Source: Pirellulales bacterium
GTDB taxonomy: Bacteria > Planctomycetota > Planctomycetia > Pirellulales > UBA1268
Assembly (NCBI GenBank): GCA_040397545.1
Contig: JBBAVV010000003.1
Coordinates: 68,321-132,320 of the forward strand
DNA length: 64,000 nt
Reading direction: 5' to 3'
The position numbers and the translations under genes were made by a program. Positions 22,440-51,818 of the stretch are shown here, piece by piece. The notes beneath the pieces were generated by a model. The model saw only the letters and a program-made list of their open reading frames with translations. It was not told where the DNA came from and made no database searches. The stretch's first letter is position 1; each line of letters opens with the position of its first letter.

Positions 22440-22701
22440 CGCTCACTCCTGAAACGCGGGATGTAGATGGCGCGCCGGTTGCGCCCGCTGCGAACCTTTC
22501 GGCTTTTTTATAGCCTTCTTCGCGGAATCGGTGGGTGACTTCTAACTCTGGTCGGCGGCCCCTTGCGTGAAACAGGGCGAACGCGATCCCTTGAGCGGCT
22601 CTGAAACCTGCCGCCGTGCTGGCGTTTTTTCGCCTGGCACAAGCAATCCGAGCCGGCAGCCGCCTAGCCCGCCCCCCGGATTCAATTCCCGCCCGGTTTT
22701 C

Positions 22702-22779
22702 GATTGCGCCCATTGGTCCCTGATCGCGCCCATTGGTCCTTGGGATGACCATTCGTCCCGGATTGAGCCACGTTCGTCC
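22702..22779. repeat. four phased direct repeats C(A/G)TT(G/C)GTCC at ~20-bp spacing (candidate regulator-binding array)
   Basis: GAT(T/C)GCGCCCATTGGTCC occurs at 22702-22719 and 22722-22739. Shorter copies follow: CATTCGTCC at 22750-22758 and CGTTCGTCC at 22771-22779. The array lies about 200 nt upstream of the FGE/PEP-CTERM gene. Confidence 0.6.
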
Positions 22780-22976
22780 CTTTTTTGGGGTGACGTGGAA
22801 ATCGTCTGTTAGAAACGGCGTGTCGATGAGCCGGGGGGCTCAAGGCGTTTCTGCACCCTCCCTTCTGAGGACACCTGCTCGTGAATCAATCCATGCGTTC
22901 TGGAAACTCTGCCGCTTGCGTCGTTAAGGCAAGAGGTCTCTGCAATCCAAGGCCACTGGTCAAAAGGATCGATCGT

Positions 22977-24011
22977 ATGCCGTACTTTTCTTTGAAAGTC
23001 TCTTCCCTTTGGCTGGCTGCCTTGGCCTGCCTGATGATGGGCTCTCTCGTCAACGCCGAACCGCTCCAGTGGGTGACGGTCGGCGACCCGGGGAACACGG
23101 CTGATACCACCGGAGTCCCGAATCCCGCTGGTGCCGTGGCGACTTCATTCCAGATCATGAAGTACGAGTTTACGAACCAGCTTTACACCGACTTCCTGAA
23201 CTCTGTGGCTGCGACCGACACCTACTCGCTCTACAACGCGAGCATGAGCAGCGAAGCCCGTGGCGGCATCACGCAATCCGGGTTGTCTGGTGCGTTCACC
23301 TATTTGGCCAAGACCGACATGGGCGACAAGCCGGTGAACTACGTGAGTTGGTTCGATGCGGCGCGGGTGTCTAACTGGTATCAGAACGGTGCAACGAGTT
23401 CGTCGGACACGGAGACGGGGGCGTATACTCTCGGCGGCGGCCAGACCACCGGTACGGCCCCGGCGGTGAACTCAGGGGCGACGTTCTACGTCCCGACGCA
23501 AGACCAGTGGTACAAGGCGGCGTACTACAAGGGCGGAGGCACGAGCGCCGGCTACTGGGATTACGCCACGCAGAGCAATTTGGACCCGACGGCGGTGACG
23601 GCAGGTTCGACAGGAATCGGCTCTGGTGGCAGCACTGGCAACTCCGCGAACTACAACTTGACCGCTGACTGGAATAGCCAAAATGGCAACGTGACGACGG
23701 TTGGCACCAACGGCGGGGCGAGTGCCTACGGGGCGTTTGATATGAGCGGAAACGTGGGTGAATGGAACGACCTCACGGGTGCTGCCGGCTCGTCTCGTGG
23801 GCGGCGTGGCGGCAGTTGGATCTCCGTCGCGTTCAATCTGTCGTCCTCCGGCAGCTATTCGCTCGACCCGTCGAGCGAGTTCAGCGGCATCGGTTTTCGT
23901 CTCGCAAGTCCGGTCAGCGTCCCCGAGATCGACCCGAGCGGTTTGAGTGCAGTGTTGGGGCTGCTCTTCGGCGGACTTGGGTTACTGGAACGACGACGGT
24001 ACGGCTGCTGA
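22977..24011 (+). CDS. formylglycine-generating-enzyme (SUMF1/FGE-sulfatase) domain protein with a C-terminal PEP-CTERM sorting signal
   Basis: Signal peptide MPYFSLKVSSLWLAALACLMMGSLVNA. FGE-domain blocks are present: YEFTNQLYTDFLN, KPVNYVSWFDAARVSNW, YGAFDMSGNVGEWNDL and RGGSW. The C-terminus VPEIDPSGLSAVLGLLFGGLGLLERRR has the PEP-CTERM pattern (PEP-like motif, TM helix, Arg cluster). Confidence 0.8.
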   Translation: MPYFSLKVSSLWLAALACLMMGSLVNAEPLQWVTVGDPGNTADTTGVPNPAGAVATSFQIMKYEFTNQLYTDFLNSVAATDTYSLYNASMSSEARGGITQSGLSGAFTYLAKTDMGDKPVNYVSWFDAARVSNWYQNGATSSSDTETGAYTLGGGQTTGTAPAVNSGATFYVPTQDQWYKAAYYKGGGTSAGYWDYATQSNLDPTAVTAGSTGIGSGGSTGNSANYNLTADWNSQNGNVTTVGTNGGASAYGAFDMSGNVGEWNDLTGAAGSSRGRRGGSWISVAFNLSSSGSYSLDPSSEFSGIGFRLASPVSVPEIDPSGLSAVLGLLFGGLGLLERRRYGC

Positions 24012-43102: not shown

Positions 43103-43216
43103 TTGCCTGTTTCTCTCCCCGCCCCTTGCAAAACCCCCCGGGCGTGGGTTATTGGTAGGTCTAAAGGGTGGGTTAGCCAGGGGTCTGCCGCCGCCCGGTC
43201 TCCGGGAGACCTGTCC

Positions 43217-45937
43217 ATGAGCACCGCATCGACCCGGGAAAAGCTGTTCGCTGCCTTCGCGCGCCGTCTGGGGTATGTCACCGACGGCCAGCTCGAGGTG
43301 GCCTGCCAGGCGCGGCACCGCGACCCGTCGAGGGGGTTGGCCGACATCCTCGTCGCCCAAGGGGCGATTGACGACAGGAATCGGGTCCTCATCGAGGAGG
43401 TCGTGGAGAGCCACCTCGCGCCGCATGCCGGGGACACGGAGGCATGCTTTGCGGGCATCCTCGACAAGGGTTGGGTCCCCGCGGCGCTCTTCGCCGACGG
43501 GTCCGACCTCCCTACGGCGGCCGGTGCGCCGATGGGGCCGGAGCCGCCGGTCGTTGCGTGGGAAGAAGGAAATGCCGACGCCCTCGCCGAGACGGTGACG
43601 CTCGGGAGCTACACCTCCGGCGGGAGCCGCTACGAGCTCCTCGAGCTGAAGGGGTGGGGGGGAATGGGGGAGGTGTGGCTGGCCCGTGATCGCGAGCTCA
43701 ATCGGGAAGTCCTTCTCAAGCAGGTCCTGCCGCAGCTCGCCGAAAACGCGCAGAACCGAGAGAGATTTCTTCGTGAGACGCGCACCGGCGCGATTCTCGA
43801 GCATCCGGGGATCGTGCCGGTCTACGACATCGGCCAGCATCCCGGTGGCCAGCTCTTTCAGGTGATGCGGTATTTCAGGCCTGGTTCGCTTCACAAGAAG
43901 ATCGCCGCCTACCATCTCGCCCACCCCGACGCGATCGATGAGCTGGCCTTCCGGACGCTCCTGGGGCACTTCGCTACCGCCTGCCGGGCGATCGAGTTTG
44001 TCCACACCCGCGGCATCCTCCACCTCGACATCAAGCCGCAGAACATCGTCACCGGCGAATTCGGCGAGACCCAGATCATCGACTGGGGGCTCGCGCAGAT
44101 CACCGACGCCGACATGCTCGGGAAAGTCCACGAGGAGAGCGGGAATCTCGCGAGCGGATCGCCGCGCGGCGACTCGGTGCCGCCCACATCGAGGGAAAAG
44201 CGGACCGTGACCGACGTCTTGCCGCGGGGTCTGCGGGGGACCCCCGCCTATGCCGCCCCGGAGCAGTGGCAGGGGGATCCGAAGGCGCTCGGGCACCGGA
44301 CCGACGTCTACGGCCTCGGGGCCACGCTCTTCGAGATCCTCGCCGGCAAGGCGCCTTTCAAGGTGCCCGCGCCGACGCTTCGAGAGGATGTCGAGATCGG
44401 AAACCTCCACCGGGAAGTGAAGCCGTGGGTGCCGGCGAACCTGCGGGCGATCTGCCGCAAGGCGATGGCGGTGACGCCGGGCGACCGCTACGCCACGGCG
44501 GCGGCCCTCGCCGACGACGTCGACCGCTTCCTCGCCGACGAGCCGGTGGCAGCCTGGCCCGATCCCTGGCGGGTGCGGCTGTGGCGATTCGTCAAGGGCC
44601 ACCGGACGGCCGTGGCGGCGGCCGGCGTACTCCTGGCCACGACGACGGTGGCCCTGGCGATCGGGAACGTGCTCGTGTCGCGGGAGCGCGACGTGGCCAC
44701 GCGCAACGCCGCAATGACGCGCGACGTGATCGCCGACTTCATCGAGAAGGTTGCCGACGACCAGTGGGGAAAGATCCCCGGAACGGGGACGCTCCGGCTC
44801 GACGCCGTGAAGAGCGTCGTCGACAAGTTTCCCGACTTGATCGAGCAGCAGCCCGACAATCCTGACCTGAAGTACGACGCGGCGCTGATCTACCGGCGGT
44901 GCGCGAATCTCTACCGCCTGCTCGGAAAGCTCGACGAGGCGAAGCCGCTCTACGACCAGTCGCGGGAGATCATGGAAAAGCTCGTCGCCGAGCATCCGGA
45001 CGTCGCCCTCTACGGCCTGGGATGGTGCCACAATCTTCTCGAGGAGGCGGAGATCCTCGTCCGGGAATCCGGTCCCGAGCCGGCCCTGCCGACCCTGAAT
45101 GAGGCGCTCGTGGCCGCCGAGCGGAGCGTGGCGCAGTTTCCGCAGCCCTCCTCCGGGGCACGACGAGTACTCGCCCAGGTGCAGATGGATCTCGCCGAAG
45201 TGCTTGTCAATACCGGTAGGGTCGATGAGAGCGTGAAACTTTCGGGAGAGGCGGTGAAGAATTTCGACAACGTCACGGCCCGGGATGCAGACGACGACGA
45301 GGAGACCCGCGTTGTGACGCGGCTCCTTGCCGCGTTGGCGGCGGTCGTCGCCACGAATGCCCGCTCGGAGGCCGATCGGCGGGACGAGGCGAGGGAAATG
45401 GCCGAGAAGGCCGACCGACAGACGGCGGAACTGTCAGCGCAGCACGGCGGCGATCCGAACGTCGACTACGTCCGGGCCCTGGCTCTCGATGAACGGGCCC
45501 GCGTCCTCGGGCTCGACGCCGCGACGGCGGCGGAGGGAGAGAAGCTCGGGAACGAGGCGATCGACAAGCTCCGGGCCCTCGTCGCGAGCGCTCCCGACGA
45601 GGCCAACTTCCGGCCGGCACTCGCCGACATCCTCGTCGATCGGGGTGAAAAACGCCTCGCTGCGGAGAACACCGCCGAGGCCGCCAAGCTCGCCGACGAA
45701 GCGCTCGTCGCCGTCGCCCCCCTCGACGAGCCGACCGGCGCCGCCGAGGCAAAGCGCTCCCTCGCCCGGGCCCACGCCCTCCGCGGCCGGGCCGCCACGG
45801 CCGCCGGCGACGCCGCCGCCGCCAAGACGCATCTTCAGTCGGCGAGGGAGTTCTACGAACCGGCCATGGCCGGAGCACCTGAAAACAAAAAACTCCGCGA
45901 AGAGGCCGCCGAGATCGGGCGGCTCCTCGCGGAGTGA
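43217..45937 (+). CDS. membrane Ser/Thr protein kinase with C-terminal TPR-like domain (paralogue 1)
   Basis: Hanks kinase blocks: GWGGMGEVWLARD..VLLKQV, HPGIVPVYD, HLDIKPQNIV, IIDWGLA, GTPAYAAPEQ. TM segment AVAAAGVLLATTTVALAIGNVLV, followed by a helical repeat region. Confidence 0.9.
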   Translation: MSTASTREKLFAAFARRLGYVTDGQLEVACQARHRDPSRGLADILVAQGAIDDRNRVLIEEVVESHLAPHAGDTEACFAGILDKGWVPAALFADGSDLPTAAGAPMGPEPPVVAWEEGNADALAETVTLGSYTSGGSRYELLELKGWGGMGEVWLARDRELNREVLLKQVLPQLAENAQNRERFLRETRTGAILEHPGIVPVYDIGQHPGGQLFQVMRYFRPGSLHKKIAAYHLAHPDAIDELAFRTLLGHFATACRAIEFVHTRGILHLDIKPQNIVTGEFGETQIIDWGLAQITDADMLGKVHEESGNLASGSPRGDSVPPTSREKRTVTDVLPRGLRGTPAYAAPEQWQGDPKALGHRTDVYGLGATLFEILAGKAPFKVPAPTLREDVEIGNLHREVKPWVPANLRAICRKAMAVTPGDRYATAAALADDVDRFLADEPVAAWPDPWRVRLWRFVKGHRTAVAAAGVLLATTTVALAIGNVLVSRERDVATRNAAMTRDVIADFIEKVADDQWGKIPGTGTLRLDAVKSVVDKFPDLIEQQPDNPDLKYDAALIYRRCANLYRLLGKLDEAKPLYDQSREIMEKLVAEHPDVALYGLGWCHNLLEEAEILVRESGPEPALPTLNEALVAAERSVAQFPQPSSGARRVLAQVQMDLAEVLVNTGRVDESVKLSGEAVKNFDNVTARDADDDEETRVVTRLLAALAAVVATNARSEADRRDEAREMAEKADRQTAELSAQHGGDPNVDYVRALALDERARVLGLDAATAAEGEKLGNEAIDKLRALVASAPDEANFRPALADILVDRGEKRLAAENTAEAAKLADEALVAVAPLDEPTGAAEAKRSLARAHALRGRAATAAGDAAAAKTHLQSAREFYEPAMAGAPENKKLREEAAEIGRLLAE

Positions 45938-46013
45938 AGGAATGGGCGGCTGCAGCCAAGAATTGCTCCGTATGAGACTTTGGCGTTCCCGTATGGCTCA
46001 GGAATACCAGACT

Positions 46014-46394
46014 TTACGGTGTTAGCAACGGTTTCATCGTTATCGTCATTTTTCGACTACCCCCAGGTTTAGGAAGAGAGGTGAATTCCTCTGCGTCAAG
46101 CTCAGCGACGAATTGATTTCCTTCAAGTTTCACACTTAAGAAGCTCGCTGGAGAATCATTGGAACCACTCTTCTTGATGTTCACGGGATTATTATTTTCA
46201 TCCGCGACTGAGATGAAAAATTCTCTTACGGGATTTCCATGGCAGGTGATTACGACGTCGGTCACGTCAAAAATGAGTTTGTAGATTTGTTTCTGTGGTC
46301 TTGAAGCGGTTGGACGGTGACGCGTGGAGGGTTTTCGTGGCGTTGATTTCTTTGTAGTCCCTCGCGCTCTCGCCGCCTTTTTCTTCTTCGCCAT
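46014..46394 (-). CDS. small basic-tailed protein 1 (126 aa): MAKKKK Lys/Ser/Thr/Pro-rich tail plus beta-rich domain
   Basis: AAGGAG lies 8 nt upstream of ATG 46394. A 381-nt frame stays open in DNA of about 40-45% GC, where stop codons are frequent by chance. No signal peptide and no family recognised. Confidence 0.65.
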   Translation of the reverse strand: MAKKKKAARARGTTKKSTPRKPSTRHRPTASRPQKQIYKLIFDVTDVVITCHGNPVREFFISVADENNNPVNIKKSGSNDSPASFLSVKLEGNQFVAELDAEEFTSLPKPGGSRKMTITMKPLLTP

Positions 46395-46730
46395 TGCATG
46401 ATCTCCTTGAAGGGCATCAATCGGGTCATGGCCGACGATCTGGCCGACGATCTGGCCGACGATCTGGCCGACGATCGGCGGGATCGTGCGGGCCCATGAT
46501 AGCGGGGAGTGGTTCACTCTGCACGAGGGGGATGGTCGTAGGTGCCCATCAGCCCCGCCGGATCGAACCCCCCCGCAATCAGGCCGCCAGGAGGGTTCGC
46601 CCGTGTCCTGGGAGCCGGCGTTGCAGGCCAGCGCATCCATGGATGGCAAAGCGTAGCCGGCACCCGAGTGAAGCTTTGGCCCGGAAGGCCAAAGCGAACG
46701 TCGGTCGACAGGGCACGGGCGACCCCGACC
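46378..46730 (-). repeat. conserved GC-rich leader element, copy A (upstream of small protein 1)
   Basis: Aligns by hand with 48286-48613. The 46558-46730 block matches 48441-48613 with 12 mismatches in 173 nt. The 46381-46433 block matches 48289-48341 with 2 mismatches in 53 nt. The element spans the RBS and the first 5 codons. Confidence 0.9.
46430..46477. repeat. 12-bp tandem repeat (GGCCGACGATCT)x4 inside leader copy A
   Basis: Three perfect units plus a fourth with one mismatch. Copy B (48338-48361) carries only two degenerate units. Confidence 0.9.
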
Positions 46731-46796
46731 CCCACCGGGGCCTGCAGCCCTCGGGCTTACCGACGTTTGGTGATCGAACAGCCCCCTGAGCCCGCG

Positions 46797-47633
46797 TCAG
46801 CGCAGCGCCTCCTCGGTCGGGATCGGCCGGCGGCCACGGAGCCGGAAACGGGCCAGGGCGATGAGGCCGGGGATCACGAGCAGCCAGCCCCCGCCGTTCA
46901 AGCAATCCTGGGCCGGAAGGGGAAGGTGGCTCGTGAGGGGATCGAGGAGATCATAGGCCGGCTGGAAGAGGTCGTTGACGCCCTTCCAGCGCAACACAAG
47001 GCGGCGGAGGACGGGGCCTTCGTCGCGCCCTAGCTTCTCGATCTTCTGCTGGAGGGCGGGGAGGCCATCGGGGGCGGCCGCGGCGGCAGCGGCCCGGCGA
47101 TTGGCCGCGGCAACCCGCCGGGGCACCTTCCCGTCGGCTCCCCTCTCGACACCGACGAAGAAACTGAACACCAGCGAGAGCACCGCCATCGCGAAAATAT
47201 TGAGAAACAACTGGCTCAAGAAGACGAGCATCCCGACCCGGAAGGGGATCTTCCAGAGCAGCACTTGAACGACCCCGCCGGCGCAGAGGGCGAAGAGGAC
47301 GGGGAGATAGCGGATCAGCGGCACGTAGCCGAGGACAAACCACTTCAGCCCCATCGGCTCGCGGAGCCAGGTGAGATAGCTGAAGTTGGGGGGGAAGGCG
47401 ATCCCGAGACGCGGATCCTGCATGAGCCGGGCGAAGCCGTAGCCGGAGAGGTCGTAGACGAAGAAGACGGTGAGCCAGACCGCGAACACGGTCTTCGCGG
47501 CGCCGAGGATCGTCGCCGGCCCTTCCTCCGTCCAGAAGGCGGTGGTGCGCATGAGGATGAAGATGGCGATCGGGAGCATGAGCAGCCAGAACAGGATCGG
47601 CAGCAGGCTCGAGTGTTCGATCGACTGGATCAT
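46797..47633 (-). CDS. hypothetical multi-pass membrane protein (278 aa)
   Basis: MIQSIEHSSLLPILFWLLMLPIAIFILM.. is followed by ~6 hydrophobic helices and then a soluble Arg/Ala-rich C-terminus. Codon usage is genome-typical. Confidence 0.7.
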   Translation of the reverse strand: MIQSIEHSSLLPILFWLLMLPIAIFILMRTTAFWTEEGPATILGAAKTVFAVWLTVFFVYDLSGYGFARLMQDPRLGIAFPPNFSYLTWLREPMGLKWFVLGYVPLIRYLPVLFALCAGGVVQVLLWKIPFRVGMLVFLSQLFLNIFAMAVLSLVFSFFVGVERGADGKVPRRVAAANRRAAAAAAAPDGLPALQQKIEKLGRDEGPVLRRLVLRWKGVNDLFQPAYDLLDPLTSHLPLPAQDCLNGGGWLLVIPGLIALARFRLRGRRPIPTEEALR

Positions 47634-47685
47634 GCCGCATCTTGTAGCGGGGGAGTCTGGAAGCTTCGTGGCGGTCGGTGAGGCG

Positions 47686-47858
47686 TCATTTGACGAGCCC
47701 GCTGCTCGTGTCGAGCGTGCTCATGCCGCGCAGCGCCAAGGCGACCGCGTCGGGGTTCGTCGAGAGGCGGCGGGCCTCGGTGCCGGTGATCTGACCGCGG
47801 TTGGAGAGCTCCGTCAGGTGCTGGTCGAAGAGCTGCATGCCATGGATCCGGTTTAATC
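47686..47858 (-). pseudogene. pilT: 3' remnant of a PilT/PilU-type twitching-motility ATPase gene
   Basis: The minus-strand translation ..RIHGMQLFDQHLTELSNRGQITGTEARRLSTNPDAVALALRG..* matches the conserved extreme C-terminus of PilT (..GMQT(F/M)DQ.L..L...G.I..EEA......P..L). An in-frame stop lies ~18 codons upstream, and there is no ATPase core. Confidence 0.6.
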
Positions 47859-48302
47859 GGGGATACTCGCGTTGGTTTTGTAAGTAGTTTCCTTTCTACG
47901 GAAGGGTGGAGTGGTCCGTCCCGCCAGGATCGTGATTTTTAGTTTACCCGTGCCACGCAATTCGATCGATCGCCGCGAAATCCCAGTCACTTTTATAACA
48001 AATTGACCGGGTGTGCTGTCCGAAAATGAAACCTTGTCATTGGGAATCGGGTGTGTGGCTTGTGTGTCATCATCTGTGAACACAAGCACGTTTGTGTCAC
48101 TGTAAACGGCTGGGTTGGAGAGATTGCTACCCATTACTGTAAACCAGAAGTTGTCCTTGCTGAGGGGGATGGCCTCAGGATCAGTGCTGTAGATTACGGG
48201 CGCTAGAACTGTCGGGTTGGTCTTCGGGGCCTTCTGTTTGCCGGACCCCGAAGTTGTCTTCGGGTGAGAGCGTTTGGCAACTGCTACTTTCTTCTTCGCC
48301 AT
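47853..48302 (-). CDS. small basic-tailed protein 2 (149 aa): MAKKK tail plus IPT/TIG-like beta-sandwich
   Basis: AAGGAG lies 8 nt upstream of ATG 48302. The 450-nt frame is open in ~45-48% GC DNA. PVIYSTDPEAIPLSKDNFWFTVMGSNLSNP resembles the first strands of IPT/TIG Ig-like domains. Confidence 0.65.
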   Translation of the reverse strand: MAKKKVAVAKRSHPKTTSGSGKQKAPKTNPTVLAPVIYSTDPEAIPLSKDNFWFTVMGSNLSNPAVYSDTNVLVFTDDDTQATHPIPNDKVSFSDSTPGQFVIKVTGISRRSIELRGTGKLKITILAGRTTPPFRRKETTYKTNASIPD

Positions 48303-48613
48303 TACATGATCTCCTTGAAGGGCATCGATCGGGTCATGGCCATCGATCCGGCCGACGATCGGCGGGTCGTGCGGGGCCATCATAGCGGGGAGTCGGGCAC
48401 CCGGCACGAGGGGGGCGCAAAGAAGTGTCGAACGGCGCTACCGGATCGAACTCCCCCGTAGTCAGGCCGCGAGGAGGGGTCGCCCGTGTCCTGGGAGCCG
48501 GCGTTGCAGGCCAGCGCAGCCATGGATGGCGAAGCGCCGCCGGCACCCGAGTGAAGCTTTGGCCCGGAAGGCCAAAGCGAATGTCCGGCGACAGGGCACG
48601 GGCGACCCCGACC
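48286..48613 (-). repeat. conserved GC-rich leader element, copy B (upstream of small protein 2)
   Basis: Paralogue of 46378-46730. It contains an 18-bp long-range stem (48476-48493 with 48592-48609) and a 9-bp hairpin (48556-48578). Confidence 0.9.
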
Positions 48614-48826
48614 TGCCGCTTCGGCCCGCAGCACCCGGTCCCCGACGTTGCAGGTTGCGGCGATCGGGATCGGCAGCGCCCCGGGGGAAGAGGCCGCACC
48701 GAACGGTGGATGCGGGCCATCATAAGGGGTGACGAGCGGTCCGCGCGGGGGGTAATCTTTCCGTGGCGTTGGCGGGCGGGATCCCCCCCGACGGTCGTCG
48801 ATCGATCACTTCACTGAGGTGCACCC

Positions 48827-51475
48827 ATGCCGACCGACCCGACCCGAGGCCTTCTGTGTGCGATCTTCGCAATCCACCTCAACTTCATCACCCGCAACCA
48901 ACTTGCGGCCGCGATCGCCGAGTGGATCCGGGATCCGGCGCGCGCGATCGCCGAGATCCTCGTCGCGCAGAAGGCGATCGACCCACGGACGCGGGAGATC
49001 GTCGAGGACGTCGTGGCCCGGCATCTCGAGCAGCATCACGGGGATGTGGAGCAGAGCCTCGCCACTCTCGACGCCAAGGGGCTGATCCCGCCGGAGCTCG
49101 CCTCGGTGCTCGGCGACAGCCTGACCTCCGAAGCCCGCCCACCGGCATCGGCGGGGGCCGAGGCGAGCACCCCGGTCTCGCTCGACGGCTACGCCTCCGG
49201 GGGAACGCGCTACCGGGTGTTGGGGCCGCAGGAGCGGGGGGGGATGGGGGAGGTGCTCGTCGCCCGCGATCTCGAGCTCGGCCGCAAGGTGCTTCTCAAG
49301 CAGCTCCCCGATCGCAACGCCGACGACCCGGGGCACCGGGCCTCCTTTCTCAAGGAAATCCTTGCCGGCGCGGCGCTGGAGCATCCCAACATCGCGCCGG
49401 TCTACGACATCGGGCAGTATCCGGGGGGGCGATTGTTCCAGGTGATGCGGTTGATCCCCGGCGGCACGCTCGCACGGGCGATCCGCGATCATCACGCCTC
49501 CGGCGGCGCGGTGCCGGTGGCCGGGAGGATGCTCCGCTTTCGCGAGCTCCTCGGGCACTTCGTCGATGCCTGTCAGGCGATCGAGTATGCCCACAGCCGC
49601 GGGGTGCTCCACCGCGACATCAAGCCGAACAACATCATGCTCGGGTCGTTCGGCGAGACGCAGGTGATCGACTGGGGGCTGGCCCGCATCGCCGGGCACG
49701 ATCTCTCCGCCGGGAAAGGATCACCGGAAGAGCTCATCTCGCCCGCCGACATCGGGGAGGATTCGCAGCCGACGAAGGAGGGGCAGTTCAAGGGGACGCC
49801 GGCCTATGCGAGCCCCGAGCAGGCGGATGGAAAGCAAGACCTGATCGATGCCCGCAGCGATGTCTACGGCCTCGGGGCGACGCTCTATTGCCTCCTCACC
49901 GGCGAGGCGCCGTTCCATGTGCGGTCGCCCCTGATCCTCGACGACGTCAAGAATGGGAGGTTTCCCCGACCGCGGCTGATGCGCGCCGACGTTCCGCCGG
50001 CGCTGGAGTCGATTTGCCTCAAGGCGATGGCCAAGGCCCAGAAGGATCGGTACCAATCGCCGCGCGACCTGGCGACGGATGTCGAGCGCTGGCTGGCCGA
50101 CGAGCCGGTCCTCGCCCATCCCGATCCCTTCTCCGTTCGGCTGCGGCGCTGGGGGCTGCGGCACCGCACCGCCGTCGCCGCGGCCGCGGCGCTCCTCCTC
50201 ACGAGCGTCGTCGGCCTCGGCATCGGCTATGCGGCGGTCAAGGAGCAGCGCGACGTGGCGGAGAAGAGTACCGATCTGACACTCACCGCCATCGAGGACA
50301 TCGTCATCGAGATCGGAGATGATTCGTGGGTCCAGGATCCTGAATCGCTCCCGCGACGACGGCAGGCAGTGGAACGTGCCATCGAGATGTATGAGGACGT
50401 CTTGCAGTCAGACTCGAGGAATAGCCGCGCCACACAGGGGCTCAATAACGCCCGACAACGCAAGGGGTTCCTGGAGAGACTCAGCGGGGATGATTCCCTC
50501 GCGATCGAGAGCTTCAAGAAATCGATCGAGGGCTTGGAGCAGCAATTGGAATCGAGTCTGAAAAATCCCATCGACTTCCGGGACATCATCGCTACCCGTA
50601 GTGACATGGCGATGGCATTGCTCTTTTCCGAGGGTTCGGCAGCGGCGGAAAGTTTTCAGCGGCAGACGTGCGAAAGGGCCGCAGCCGTTTTGAAAAATGA
50701 ACCGGAATCGCAGTTGGCGAAGGAGATGAATGCCTGTGCTGAACGAGCGCTTGCCAGCATCCTCGAAGCGGCTGGAAAGACCGAAGACGCCGTGGCCTTG
50801 ATGGTGCGGAGCGCCGATACCTATTCGGAGCTCGCAGCAGATGACGAAGGACTTCATCAGCAGGCCTTCCGGGCCTGCACGTTGCGGGCGGAGTCGGCCC
50901 GTTGCTATCGACGGCTCGGCCGACTCGACGAGGCTCGGAAAGCCGCGAAGATGGCAAGGAACCTCAATGAGGGATTGATGGCTTTTGGTGTTGATTTCGT
51001 TGACTTGCGGCAGGCCAATGCCCTGACACTTCGCGAGCTGGCGATGACGGTCGATGAGCCTGCCCGAGCCGAAGCAGACGAAATGCTCCGCGATTCATTG
51101 GGGATCTATGACCAGCTGATGAAGCTGAATAGGAAGATCTGGCGATATCAACGCGATTTCTCCGAGACGTACGTTGATCGTGGTCGGATGCGACTCCAAA
51201 ATGCCGACGTCGAGGGCGCCGAGCGCGATGTCGATGCCATCCTGAAAGAGTGGCAAGCGACGGATTGGCCTCCTGCGGCACGGGCCCAGACCTCGGCGCG
51301 GTTGTTTGCCTTGAGGGGCCTGATTGCCGAACAGCGGGGGGATGAACCGCGGGCGCGCGAACTGTTGAAGTCGGCACTCGAACACTGCGTTGAATCGCGT
51401 CGCTTCGGGTTCGGTGTGATCGCGGATGTCGAAGCCGAGGTCGGCCAGCATCTTGAACGGCTCGGATCGCCGTAA
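48827..51475 (+). CDS. membrane Ser/Thr protein kinase with C-terminal helical-repeat domain (paralogue 2)
   Basis: Kinase blocks: ERGGMGEVLVARD..VLLKQL, HPNIAPVYD, HRDIKPNNIML, VIDWGLA, GTPAYASPEQ. TM segment AVAAAAALLLTSVVGLGIGYAAV. The N-terminal ~70 aa are similar to kinase 1. Confidence 0.9.
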   Translation: MPTDPTRGLLCAIFAIHLNFITRNQLAAAIAEWIRDPARAIAEILVAQKAIDPRTREIVEDVVARHLEQHHGDVEQSLATLDAKGLIPPELASVLGDSLTSEARPPASAGAEASTPVSLDGYASGGTRYRVLGPQERGGMGEVLVARDLELGRKVLLKQLPDRNADDPGHRASFLKEILAGAALEHPNIAPVYDIGQYPGGRLFQVMRLIPGGTLARAIRDHHASGGAVPVAGRMLRFRELLGHFVDACQAIEYAHSRGVLHRDIKPNNIMLGSFGETQVIDWGLARIAGHDLSAGKGSPEELISPADIGEDSQPTKEGQFKGTPAYASPEQADGKQDLIDARSDVYGLGATLYCLLTGEAPFHVRSPLILDDVKNGRFPRPRLMRADVPPALESICLKAMAKAQKDRYQSPRDLATDVERWLADEPVLAHPDPFSVRLRRWGLRHRTAVAAAAALLLTSVVGLGIGYAAVKEQRDVAEKSTDLTLTAIEDIVIEIGDDSWVQDPESLPRRRQAVERAIEMYEDVLQSDSRNSRATQGLNNARQRKGFLERLSGDDSLAIESFKKSIEGLEQQLESSLKNPIDFRDIIATRSDMAMALLFSEGSAAAESFQRQTCERAAAVLKNEPESQLAKEMNACAERALASILEAAGKTEDAVALMVRSADTYSELAADDEGLHQQAFRACTLRAESARCYRRLGRLDEARKAAKMARNLNEGLMAFGVDFVDLRQANALTLRELAMTVDEPARAEADEMLRDSLGIYDQLMKLNRKIWRYQRDFSETYVDRGRMRLQNADVEGAERDVDAILKEWQATDWPPAARAQTSARLFALRGLIAEQRGDEPRARELLKSALEHCVESRRFGFGVIADVEAEVGQHLERLGSP

Positions 51476-51641: not shown

Positions 51642-51818
51642 CTATTTGCCGATGACCTTCCGTTTGCCGCCTCCGATGGGAACTTGCTGTGGGGAGTCGA
51701 CGTCCTCGCGTGGCCCCCTCGGCTTGCGGGCTACCTTCTTCACGGCCTTCTTGGTGACCTTCTTCGTCACCTTCTTCGCCGCGGCGGGCTTCTTCTTCGC
51801 GGCCTTCTTCTTCGCCAT
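51642..51818 (-). CDS. small Lys/Ala-rich histone-H1/AlgP-like basic protein (58 aa)
   Basis: MAKKKAAKKKPAAAKKVTKKVTKKAVKKVARKPRG.. with AGGAG 10 nt upstream of the ATG. Low-complexity KK(A/V)(T/A)KK repeats resemble bacterial H1-like proteins. Confidence 0.55.
   Translation of the reverse strand: MAKKKAAKKKPAAAKKVTKKVTKKAVKKVARKPRGPREDVDSPQQVPIGGGKRKVIGK

Follow-up and report, generated by a model that had tools for sequence, protein, structure and literature searches.

Why should two small open reading frames (ORFs) form sharply bounded AT-rich troughs in a GC-rich planctomycete chromosome, each of them behind a GC-rich leader, and does such a trough mean that foreign DNA has arrived? The question is raised by a 64,000-nt stretch of contig JBBAVV010000003.1 of a Pirellulales bacterium (the window hereafter, whose numbering gives all positions). 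In it, ORF A (46014..46394, minus strand, start at 46394; 126 aa, type A allele) and ORF B (47853..48302, minus strand, start at 48302; 149 aa, type B allele) had been interpreted, in a preliminary description made from the letters of the sequence, as foreign cargo behind a native 5' end. The comparisons with related genomes reported here point to a different answer: the ORFs probably mark a single-gene replacement locus, lineage-restricted and hypervariable, whose AT-shifted composition is stable.

The compositional observation is real and highly non-random. The window has 68.6% GC overall, and its 300-nt windows have a mean GC of 0.686 (sd 0.044), with 0.5% of them below 0.50. ORF A (GC 0.46; GC at third codon positions, GC3, 0.46) and ORF B (GC 0.51, GC3 0.57) are the two lowest-GC regions of the 64 kb, with 300-nt minima of 0.427 and 0.477, while the GC3 of the neighbouring genes is 0.78-0.89. 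The sliding-window plot that had been proposed as a check places the deepest troughs of the window at both ORFs (46000-46400, GC 0.42-0.49, and 47800-48300, GC 0.49-0.54), and the GC values counted by hand turn out to be exact (40.0% for 46141-46200 and 48.3% for 47941-48000). The leaders are as GC-rich as had been claimed: 0.67 for leader A (46395..46767, minus strand) and 0.70 for leader B (48303..48649, minus strand). The latter falls outside the span 46014-48302 considered previously, which runs from the stop-codon end of ORF A to the first base of the ORF B start codon. The switch in composition also lies where it had been put, after codon 5, at the end of leader identity: the two leaders share ~350-390 nt at 81-86% identity (81% over ~390 nt), and this identity spans ATGGCGAAGAAGAAA (codons 1-5) and then ends.

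What, then, occupies the same position in other genomes? The gene order in relatives is kinase, PilT-like ATPase, 278-aa membrane protein, leader, small ORF and convergent Ser/Thr kinase, and the small ORF at this slot is of type A in some genomes and of type B in others. In two relatives, L051 and L030, the flanks (the divergent kinase K882, 48827..51475, plus strand; the 278-aa gene, 46797..47633, minus strand; and the convergent kinase K944, 43103..45937, plus strand, exact start codon uncertain) are 97-98% nucleotide-identical to the window, yet the slot carries a 138-aa type that cannot be aligned with A or B. Both relatives are without the B insertion, L051 having a single copy, of another type. 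For L051 the identity is 97.8% in K944 and, on the K882 side, 98% as far as 48659; around ORF A it ends at 46775 and restarts at 45946, so the exchanged segment comprises the leader, the ORF and the 3' untranslated region (UTR) up to the kinase stop codon. This 3' UTR of module A (45947..46013, minus strand; GC 0.54) runs to the convergent kinase stop and is alignable only with the 3' UTRs of type A. The leader of L051 matches leader B at 89% identity and leader A at 79%, compared with 97-98% in the flanks of what is the same species, and since the leader diverges more than the true flanks it belongs to the exchanged module and cannot be called a native 5' end. The part of the preliminary description that does hold is the layout, a conserved 5' region and then a variable body: the bodies are exchanged as units, and unalignable ones are found in the same slot across strains and species. 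As estimated from pairwise comparisons, synonymous divergence (dS) in the alleles usually exceeds that in their flanks several-fold. Between the window and L009 it amounts to 1.03 for ORF B, 0.14 for the 278-aa gene and 0.31 for the kinase, and between the window and L005 to 0.79 for ORF A and 0.19 for the kinase; L001 is the exception (0.40 for ORF B and 0.38 for the kinase).

Across species the locus is structurally dynamic and unstable. The same neighbours, that is, the 278-aa gene upstream and a K944-like kinase downstream, are present in nearly all loci long enough to judge, L012 having a different upstream gene. L018 has nothing in the slot: ~105 nt separate the stop codons of the 278-aa gene and the kinase, which is shortened here. 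L017 and L021 lack the kinase as well, and their 278-aa gene is followed by a different gene. In L023 to L025, L029 and L047 the 278-aa gene is cut short by the leader at about residue 174. When genomes were scanned with the 278-aa protein, a third type was found in the same slot (126 aa, beginning MAKKTKTL), together with genomes lacking a small ORF after the 278-aa gene. Vertical conservation of homologues with the same composition and the same N-terminal tails had been named as an observation that would speak against horizontal acquisition. Such homologues do recur at the slot in many related genomes, but the pattern is patchy and allele-swapped instead of strictly vertical.

How far does the family extend, and are its members genes at all? 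Homology searches gave few relatives, every one from freshwater metagenomes or planctomycete metagenome-assembled genomes (MAGs): P0001 to P0004 for type A (identity 97-40%; 97, 88 and 40% for the first three) and P0005 to P0011 for type B (99-53%). A metagenome scan with the ribosome-binding site (RBS) and start motif added 17 true hits, all of them ORFs of 126-154 aa that open with MAKKK and have a G(K/R)LxITI strand close to the C-terminal end; their GC is 0.47-0.57, while the contigs around them have 0.60-0.69. The members fall into at least seven groups that have diverged deeply, with ~20% identity from one group to another. In an alignment of 22 family sequences M1, A2, K3, I and T never vary and K4, K5, G and L hardly do, the C-terminal strand being RKMTITMKP in ORF A and GKLKITI in ORF B. 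When the profiles of families A and B were compared with hhalign, only this C-terminal strand pair could be aligned (E 2e-4, probability 45%); homology over the whole body is thus suggested by the shared architecture, leader and locus. The bodies had been taken to be unrelated. Nevertheless, A, B and all the other types share the MAKKK start, the near-invariant G-x-L-x-I-T strand, size, architecture, leader and locus, and A and B are likely to be two alleles of one lineage-restricted hypervariable family of 126-154 aa. As judged from their substitution patterns, ORF A and ORF B are shown to be genuine coding genes under purifying selection: the nonsynonymous-to-synonymous divergence ratio (dN/dS) is 0.17-0.33 in type B and 0.52 in type A (window versus L005), and both ORF length and terminal motifs are kept. 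The family profile, run against an index of 5.8 billion clusters, matched 14 clusters, all of them family members, and the profile of the type B body, run against 1.84 billion representative proteins, matched the family members P0005, P0012 and P0018 along with weak partial matches to immunoglobulin (Ig)-repeat proteins, which fall over the last strands.

The exchangeable module consists of the leader (promoter-like motifs, a 5' UTR of ~75 nt, a strong RBS and codons 1-5), the variable ORF and a type-specific 3' UTR, and sits in one fixed slot in a freshwater planctomycete clade. Its alleles would be swapped by homologous recombination, with crossovers in the conserved flanks, and their diversity would be kept by diversifying or frequency-dependent selection acting on the variable domain.

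The window differs from L051 in having a second copy, in an extra segment (48658..47654) composed of leader B, ORF B and a remnant of a pilT-like ATPase gene. The remnant (47686..47838, minus strand) starts 15 nt past the ORF B stop and retains only the last 50 codons, which align with the C-terminus of the intact 363-aa PilT of L001. Relatives with an intact locus have there a 273-309 aa gene, a 534-551 aa kinase and a full 363-aa PilT, all missing from the window save for the pilT remnant. The near-identical contigs L013 to L016 have the same arrangement of module B and then the remnant, and L014 also has the 278-aa gene downstream. From these gene orders, the second copy is evidently a secondary rearrangement that moved a whole leader-plus-ORF unit, at the expense of two genes and most of pilT.

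Throughout the family, the AT shift is a stable trait of the segment that cannot be aligned, in its coding and its non-coding parts. All 22 unique alleles are AT-shifted: mean GC goes from 0.66-0.73 in the leader to 0.46-0.60 in the ORF, is 0.58-0.59 over the 60 nt that follow the stop and returns to ~0.67 beyond, and A+T at third positions is 0.44 in the alleles and 0.17 in the flanking genes. Parsimony-polarised substitutions, although few, are balanced in four type B lineages (GC>AT/AT>GC 13/15, 15/12, 19/19 and 24/19), which argues for a local equilibrium near 50% GC and not for the amelioration of recently imported AT-rich DNA. How could such an equilibrium be kept inside a chromosome with GC3 near 0.85? 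In bacteria, mutation is biased towards AT (PMC2936529), and higher GC goes with recombination (PMC4450053). Deeply diverged alleles would be unable to undergo the homologous recombination or GC-biased conversion that sustains GC3 near 0.85 elsewhere, and AT-biased mutation pressure would then set the local equilibrium near 50% GC. This exclusion from recombination would explain both the switch in composition exactly where alignability ends and the AT shift in the non-coding 3' UTR, and is the cause that we prefer.

Several points weigh against this reading, some of them against its compositional part and others against the locus model as a whole. The role of missing recombination or GC-biased conversion is something that we infer, and the polarised counts given above are small and based on parsimony. 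Moreover, the type B lineage of L012 has an excess of AT>GC changes (8 GC>AT to 28 AT>GC) and a GC3 of 0.80, so that composition can differ between lineages. A rise in single-nucleotide polymorphisms (SNPs) towards the module is predicted by recombination, yet the rise observed against L051 is modest and patchy: from ~0-1 to 4-8 differences per 100 nt at the K882 boundary, and from ~1.5 to ~3.5 in the first 800 nt of K944. As profile-profile comparison aligns the last two strands only, modular reuse of the tail and the last strand on unrelated middles may also account for the family. None of the RNA-seq runs searched for the sequence contains it. Finally, all the relatives are metagenome contigs and MAGs, which makes the copy number per genome and the species assignments approximate.

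Other explanations have to be set against the same evidence. The one proposed in the preliminary description is that a 5' module derived from an H1-like gene was recombined onto ORFs from lower-GC donors, AT-richness being the signature of the donor. The gene in question (51642..51818, minus strand; outside the module) encodes a lysine-rich protein of 58 aa (MAKKKAAKKKPAAAKK...) and does share the MAKKK start with the small ORFs at a normal GC3 of 0.86, as had been pointed out. Its similarity to the leaders comprises just 29 nt (RBS plus MAKKK; 86% identity, E 0.14 within the window alone), which lends no support to its being the source of the 5' module. In a donor origin the sharp drop in GC and GC3 at the end of leader identity, and bodies that cannot be aligned between strains at one slot, would find a ready explanation. 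No outside source was found, however, among the 1.84 billion proteins or in the 5.8-billion-cluster index, and no match came from viral contigs scanned for the leader pattern, from phages searched by tblastn with both bodies or from plasmids searched by blastn with the module; no mobility gene lies among the neighbouring ORFs scanned, all alleles share the C-terminal strand and the architecture, the leader diverges along with the ORF, the substitutions are balanced and not ameliorating, and the H1-like gene has its own conserved context. Foreign cargo, in the sense originally meant, is therefore very unlikely. A decaying pseudogene or an AT-rich spacer left open by chance has almost no probability: although codon usage departs from the norm, the domain searches gave nothing known and the RNA-seq runs do not contain the sequence, the dN/dS of 0.17-0.52, the maintenance of 126-154 aa across alleles at ~20% identity, the conserved RBS, start codon and C-terminal strand, and a type B structural model that is a coherent beta sandwich all stand against it.

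The presence of two copies 1.9 kb apart, with leaders 81-86% identical, would fit a duplication within this genome followed by rapid divergence in place. We regard this as extremely improbable, given that each copy has closer relatives elsewhere at the single ancestral slot (P0001 and L040 for A; L001, L009 and L023 for B), that module B with the pilT remnant is confined to the window and near-identical relatives, and that L051, of the same species, has a single copy of another type. A different kind of alternative accepts the same locus model and attributes the AT-richness to selection, through an AT-preferring nucleoid or silencing protein, low mRNA structure or expression control by rare codons. 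Low GC in all 22 alleles despite saturated divergence and a composition at equilibrium are what it would predict, a lysine-rich H1-like gene lies 3 kb away, and the strong RBS and conserved leader suggest tight control of expression. On the other hand, the shift extends into the non-coding 3' UTR and begins exactly at the limit of alignability, which fits a recombination boundary, the type B gene of L012 keeps a GC3 of 0.80, and no silencer was identified, all of which makes selected AT-richness unlikely. The preferred reading continues to be a replacement locus whose alleles would have lost the GC-raising effect of recombination.

What kind of protein does the locus encode? The ORF A product consists of MAKKKK and a basic tail of ~37 aa followed by a beta-rich body, and that of ORF B of MAKKK and a basic tail of ~34 aa followed by a predicted Ig-like beta sandwich. 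The AlphaFold2 (AF2) model of type B (predicted local distance difference test, pLDDT, 71) has a 34-residue disordered tail and then a 9-strand beta sandwich; that of type A, built from a 4-sequence alignment and of low confidence (pLDDT 66), has the same layout of disordered tail and beta strands. Foldseek relates the type B model to generic Ig domains in the PDB (E 2e-4 to 1e-3; template-modelling score, TM, 0.35-0.5) and to viral models, some of them annotated as IPT, so the resemblance of the model would be to Ig folds generally and not specifically to IPT/TIG. Pfam gave no IPT/TIG (PF01833) or other Ig-family match in A, B or any of the 22 members, the lone Pfam exception among these being one MBTPS1_3rd match at E 0.096. 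Of the beta-rich and IPT/TIG-like bodies initially described, therefore, the beta-rich character behind a disordered basic tail is borne out in both models, and the B model is Ig-like, but the IPT/TIG assignment has no counterpart in the profile searches. PADLOC and PHROGs returned nothing for the small ORFs, and PDB sequence matches to an FHA domain, an IgA Fc receptor and IsdB were dismissed as chance (E ~0.07-1.5). Compared with Ig-like domains (IPT/TIG, Big_2, I-set, V-set), the type B model shares the 9-strand sandwich and has Ig domains as its best Foldseek matches, whereas the family differs in the missing Pfam Ig match, the TM of 0.35-0.5, its single domain, its apparently cytoplasmic location and its basic tail.

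Hydropathy profiles revealed no N-terminal hydrophobic segment, signal peptide or transmembrane segment in the family, and the product apparently looks cytoplasmic. The net charge of the tail is +9 to +13 in 18 of the 21 listed members, and ~30% of tail residues are Ser, Thr or Pro; such a segment could bind nucleic acids or serve as a kinase substrate. With low confidence, the protein can be pictured as an intracellular binding module with a variable surface engaged in a strain-specific interaction, such as with phage. Like H1-like or Hc1-type proteins, family members have a MAKKK start and a low-complexity segment rich in Lys, Arg, Ala and Pro. The neighbouring H1-like gene, unlike the family, is normal in GC3 and encodes no beta domain; it has a conserved context of its own and does not share the leader. 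It is kept in at least five related contigs (L013, L017, L018, L023 and L027) with a variable repeat length (57-65 aa) and a GC3 of 0.84-1.0 over the last ~24 codons. Pfam gave no H1/Hc1 match for the tails or for the 58-aa gene, and the likeness to H1 appears to be compositional.

The proximal ~130 nt of the leaders are conserved in 25 of 25 unique leaders, including a TAnnAT motif kept in every one (as TATGAT, TATCAT or TAAGAT), the block CCGCCGATCGTCGGCCGGATCGGTGGCCATGACCCGATCGATGC and the RBS AGGAG 8 nt before the ATG. In the two leaders of the window, a GTGCAG/GTGCCG motif stands 17 nt upstream of TAnnAT, and by their conservation the two motifs are putative -35-like and -10-like promoter elements. 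In leader A they are GTGCAG (46524..46519) and TATCAT (46501..46496), with the RBS at 46407..46403; in leader B they are GTGCCG (48407..48402) and TATGAT (48384..48379), with the RBS at 48315..48311 (all on the minus strand). A simple scan of the leaders for sigma-70 and terminator consensus sequences gave no match. Leader A also contains four copies of a 12-nt tandem repeat, GATCGTCGGCCA (46476..46429, minus strand), which in most other leaders is present as one copy and a degenerate second. A lake-metagenome contig (run X3) lacks one GATCGTCGGCCA unit, and copy number is thus polymorphic. ARAGORN found no tRNA or tmRNA, despite the T-loop-like GGTTCGATCC in some leaders.

What maintains this conservation? 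An upstream ORF of 16 codons (MMAPHDPADRRPDRWP), closed by the TGA in GGCCATGACC, is present in most leaders (46496-46530 and 48379-48410 in the window); in leader B, where 1 nt is deleted, it runs on in frame into ORF B. Its translation was rejected as the cause, because the frame or stop is broken in at least 6 of the 25 leaders and variable codons change at all positions, so that conservation acts at the level of nucleotides. A conserved RNA structure in the proximal 5' UTR was likewise rejected, the RNAalifold fold being weak (-13 kcal/mol) and without covariation support. The leaders carry 4-6 GATC per 100 nt, but a Dam-type phase-variation switch was discarded, since GATC is common genome-wide (11.9 per kb) and the leaders rank only in about the top 3% of windows. 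In the window as a whole, GATC occurs 759 times (11.9 per kb), about four times the expectation from base composition, and CGATCG 159 times.

The distal part of both leaders of the window holds a palindromic element of ~140 nt (PAL), located at 46593..46730 in leader A, with 18-bp inverted arms GGGGTCGCCCGTGCCCTG...CAGGACACGGGCGAACCC, and at 48476..48618 in leader B (both on the minus strand). Its fold is multi-branched and has -76 kcal/mol (z = -3.5). PAL is ~94-100% identical across species, present in about half of the loci and cleanly absent from some leaders. Rfam at gathering thresholds over the window had no match for the leader or PAL, and a permissive search of 45.8-49 kb returned one chance-level match (E 5). 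In two lake metagenomes, the depth of Logan contigs over the PAL of leader B averages 70-190x, with 600-700x at single positions, against ~20x for the rest, and several variant unitigs cover it; it could be a dispersed repeat or an element common to many co-occurring relatives. It resembles miniature inverted-repeat transposable elements (MITEs) or repetitive extragenic palindromic (REP) elements in being a discrete unit of ~140 nt with 18-bp inverted termini, clean presence or absence and a depth spike. Those elements have many dispersed copies, whereas PAL was found only in these leaders, with no copy elsewhere in the 365 kb examined.

The slot lies in an ordinary planctomycete core neighbourhood (PSCyt1/PSCyt2/PSD1, DUF1501, sulfatase, kinases), and the ten large ORFs scanned there, at ~34.4-61 kb, include no integrase, transposase or reverse transcriptase. 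The 278-aa gene that forms the upstream flank (GC3 0.89) encodes a hydrophobic, probably polytopic protein, 76-97% identical across relatives and without a Pfam, PADLOC or PHROGs match. The downstream flank, K944, is a Ser/Thr kinase with TPR repeats (Pfam Pkinase and TPR_12), and K882 (Pfam Pkinase), also a Ser/Thr kinase, is the upstream boundary of the B-module insertion; the PADLOC matches of both kinases are generic to the kinase domain and were not taken as evidence of defence. The C-terminal half of K882 (50360-51270, plus strand) shows a broad dip to GC 0.54-0.58 in an otherwise GC-normal gene, the third-lowest GC near the locus. The only other trough of the window below 0.56, at 22690-23082 (minimum 0.537), covers an intergenic region and the start of a gene for a 376-aa protein with a PEP-CTERM-looking C-terminus. 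As regards the names of relatives, the MAGs of L019, L020, L022 and L026 are titled 'Candidatus Kuenenia stuttgartiensis', while others with the same locus are titled Planctomycetaceae, Pirellulales or Planctomycetia, so that the Kuenenia label looks mistaken.

Among known systems, flagellin and type IV pilin loci are the classical single-gene analogues of such a locus. Two mechanisms of cassette exchange or diversification were considered and rejected. In the case of an integron cassette, the palindrome is upstream of the ORF and multi-branched, rather than a 3' attC, and the ten ORFs mentioned above include no integrase. For the target of a diversity-generating retroelement, there is no reverse transcriptase among the neighbours, the ORF bodies are not repeated in the window, and the divergence affects the whole body without being adenine-specific. 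The replacement flexible genomic islands known from aquatic prokaryotes change hands through homologous recombination in their flanks (Lopez-Perez, Martin-Cuadrado and Rodriguez-Valera 2014, PMC4033161), and the locus is like them in its fixed position, unrelated or highly diverged content, conserved flanks, atypical composition, within-species variation and the recombination in the flanks that both suggest. Unlike these multi-gene islands, which encode exposed structures, it comprises a single small gene (~0.8 kb with its own leader) whose product has, by hydropathy, no signal peptide or membrane segment. It is also set apart from them by conservation limited to five codons and one C-terminal strand, and by modest SNP peaks at the boundaries.

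Going further, and as a proposal that we consider quite unlikely as a whole, the product could be an undescribed intracellular hypervariable Ig-like recognition protein, which would act in planctomycetes as a single-gene determinant of specificity, for example in phage sensing or evasion or in self-identity. Its constant parts would be the control region, one docking strand and the tail, which might be phosphorylated by the adjacent kinase or anchor the protein to nucleic acid; the remainder of the domain would vary from strain to strain, and its AT-richness would be a direct read-out of a high-GC segment cut off from homologous recombination.

If the replacement reading is true, the locus would be a compact example of within-species allele replacement in uncultured freshwater planctomycetes, with a protein family without known relatives. 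It would also caution annotators against reading every abrupt AT-rich trough of a GC-rich genome as DNA of recent foreign origin. And it would be a clean system in which to take up the long-standing puzzle of what keeps GC-rich bacteria rich in GC: ~0.5 kb, coding and non-coding, stays at a steady 50% GC, its border with sequence of ~70% GC is exact to the nucleotide, and this boundary is the limit of alignability between alleles, as a recombination-dependent force that raises GC (biased gene conversion) would predict.

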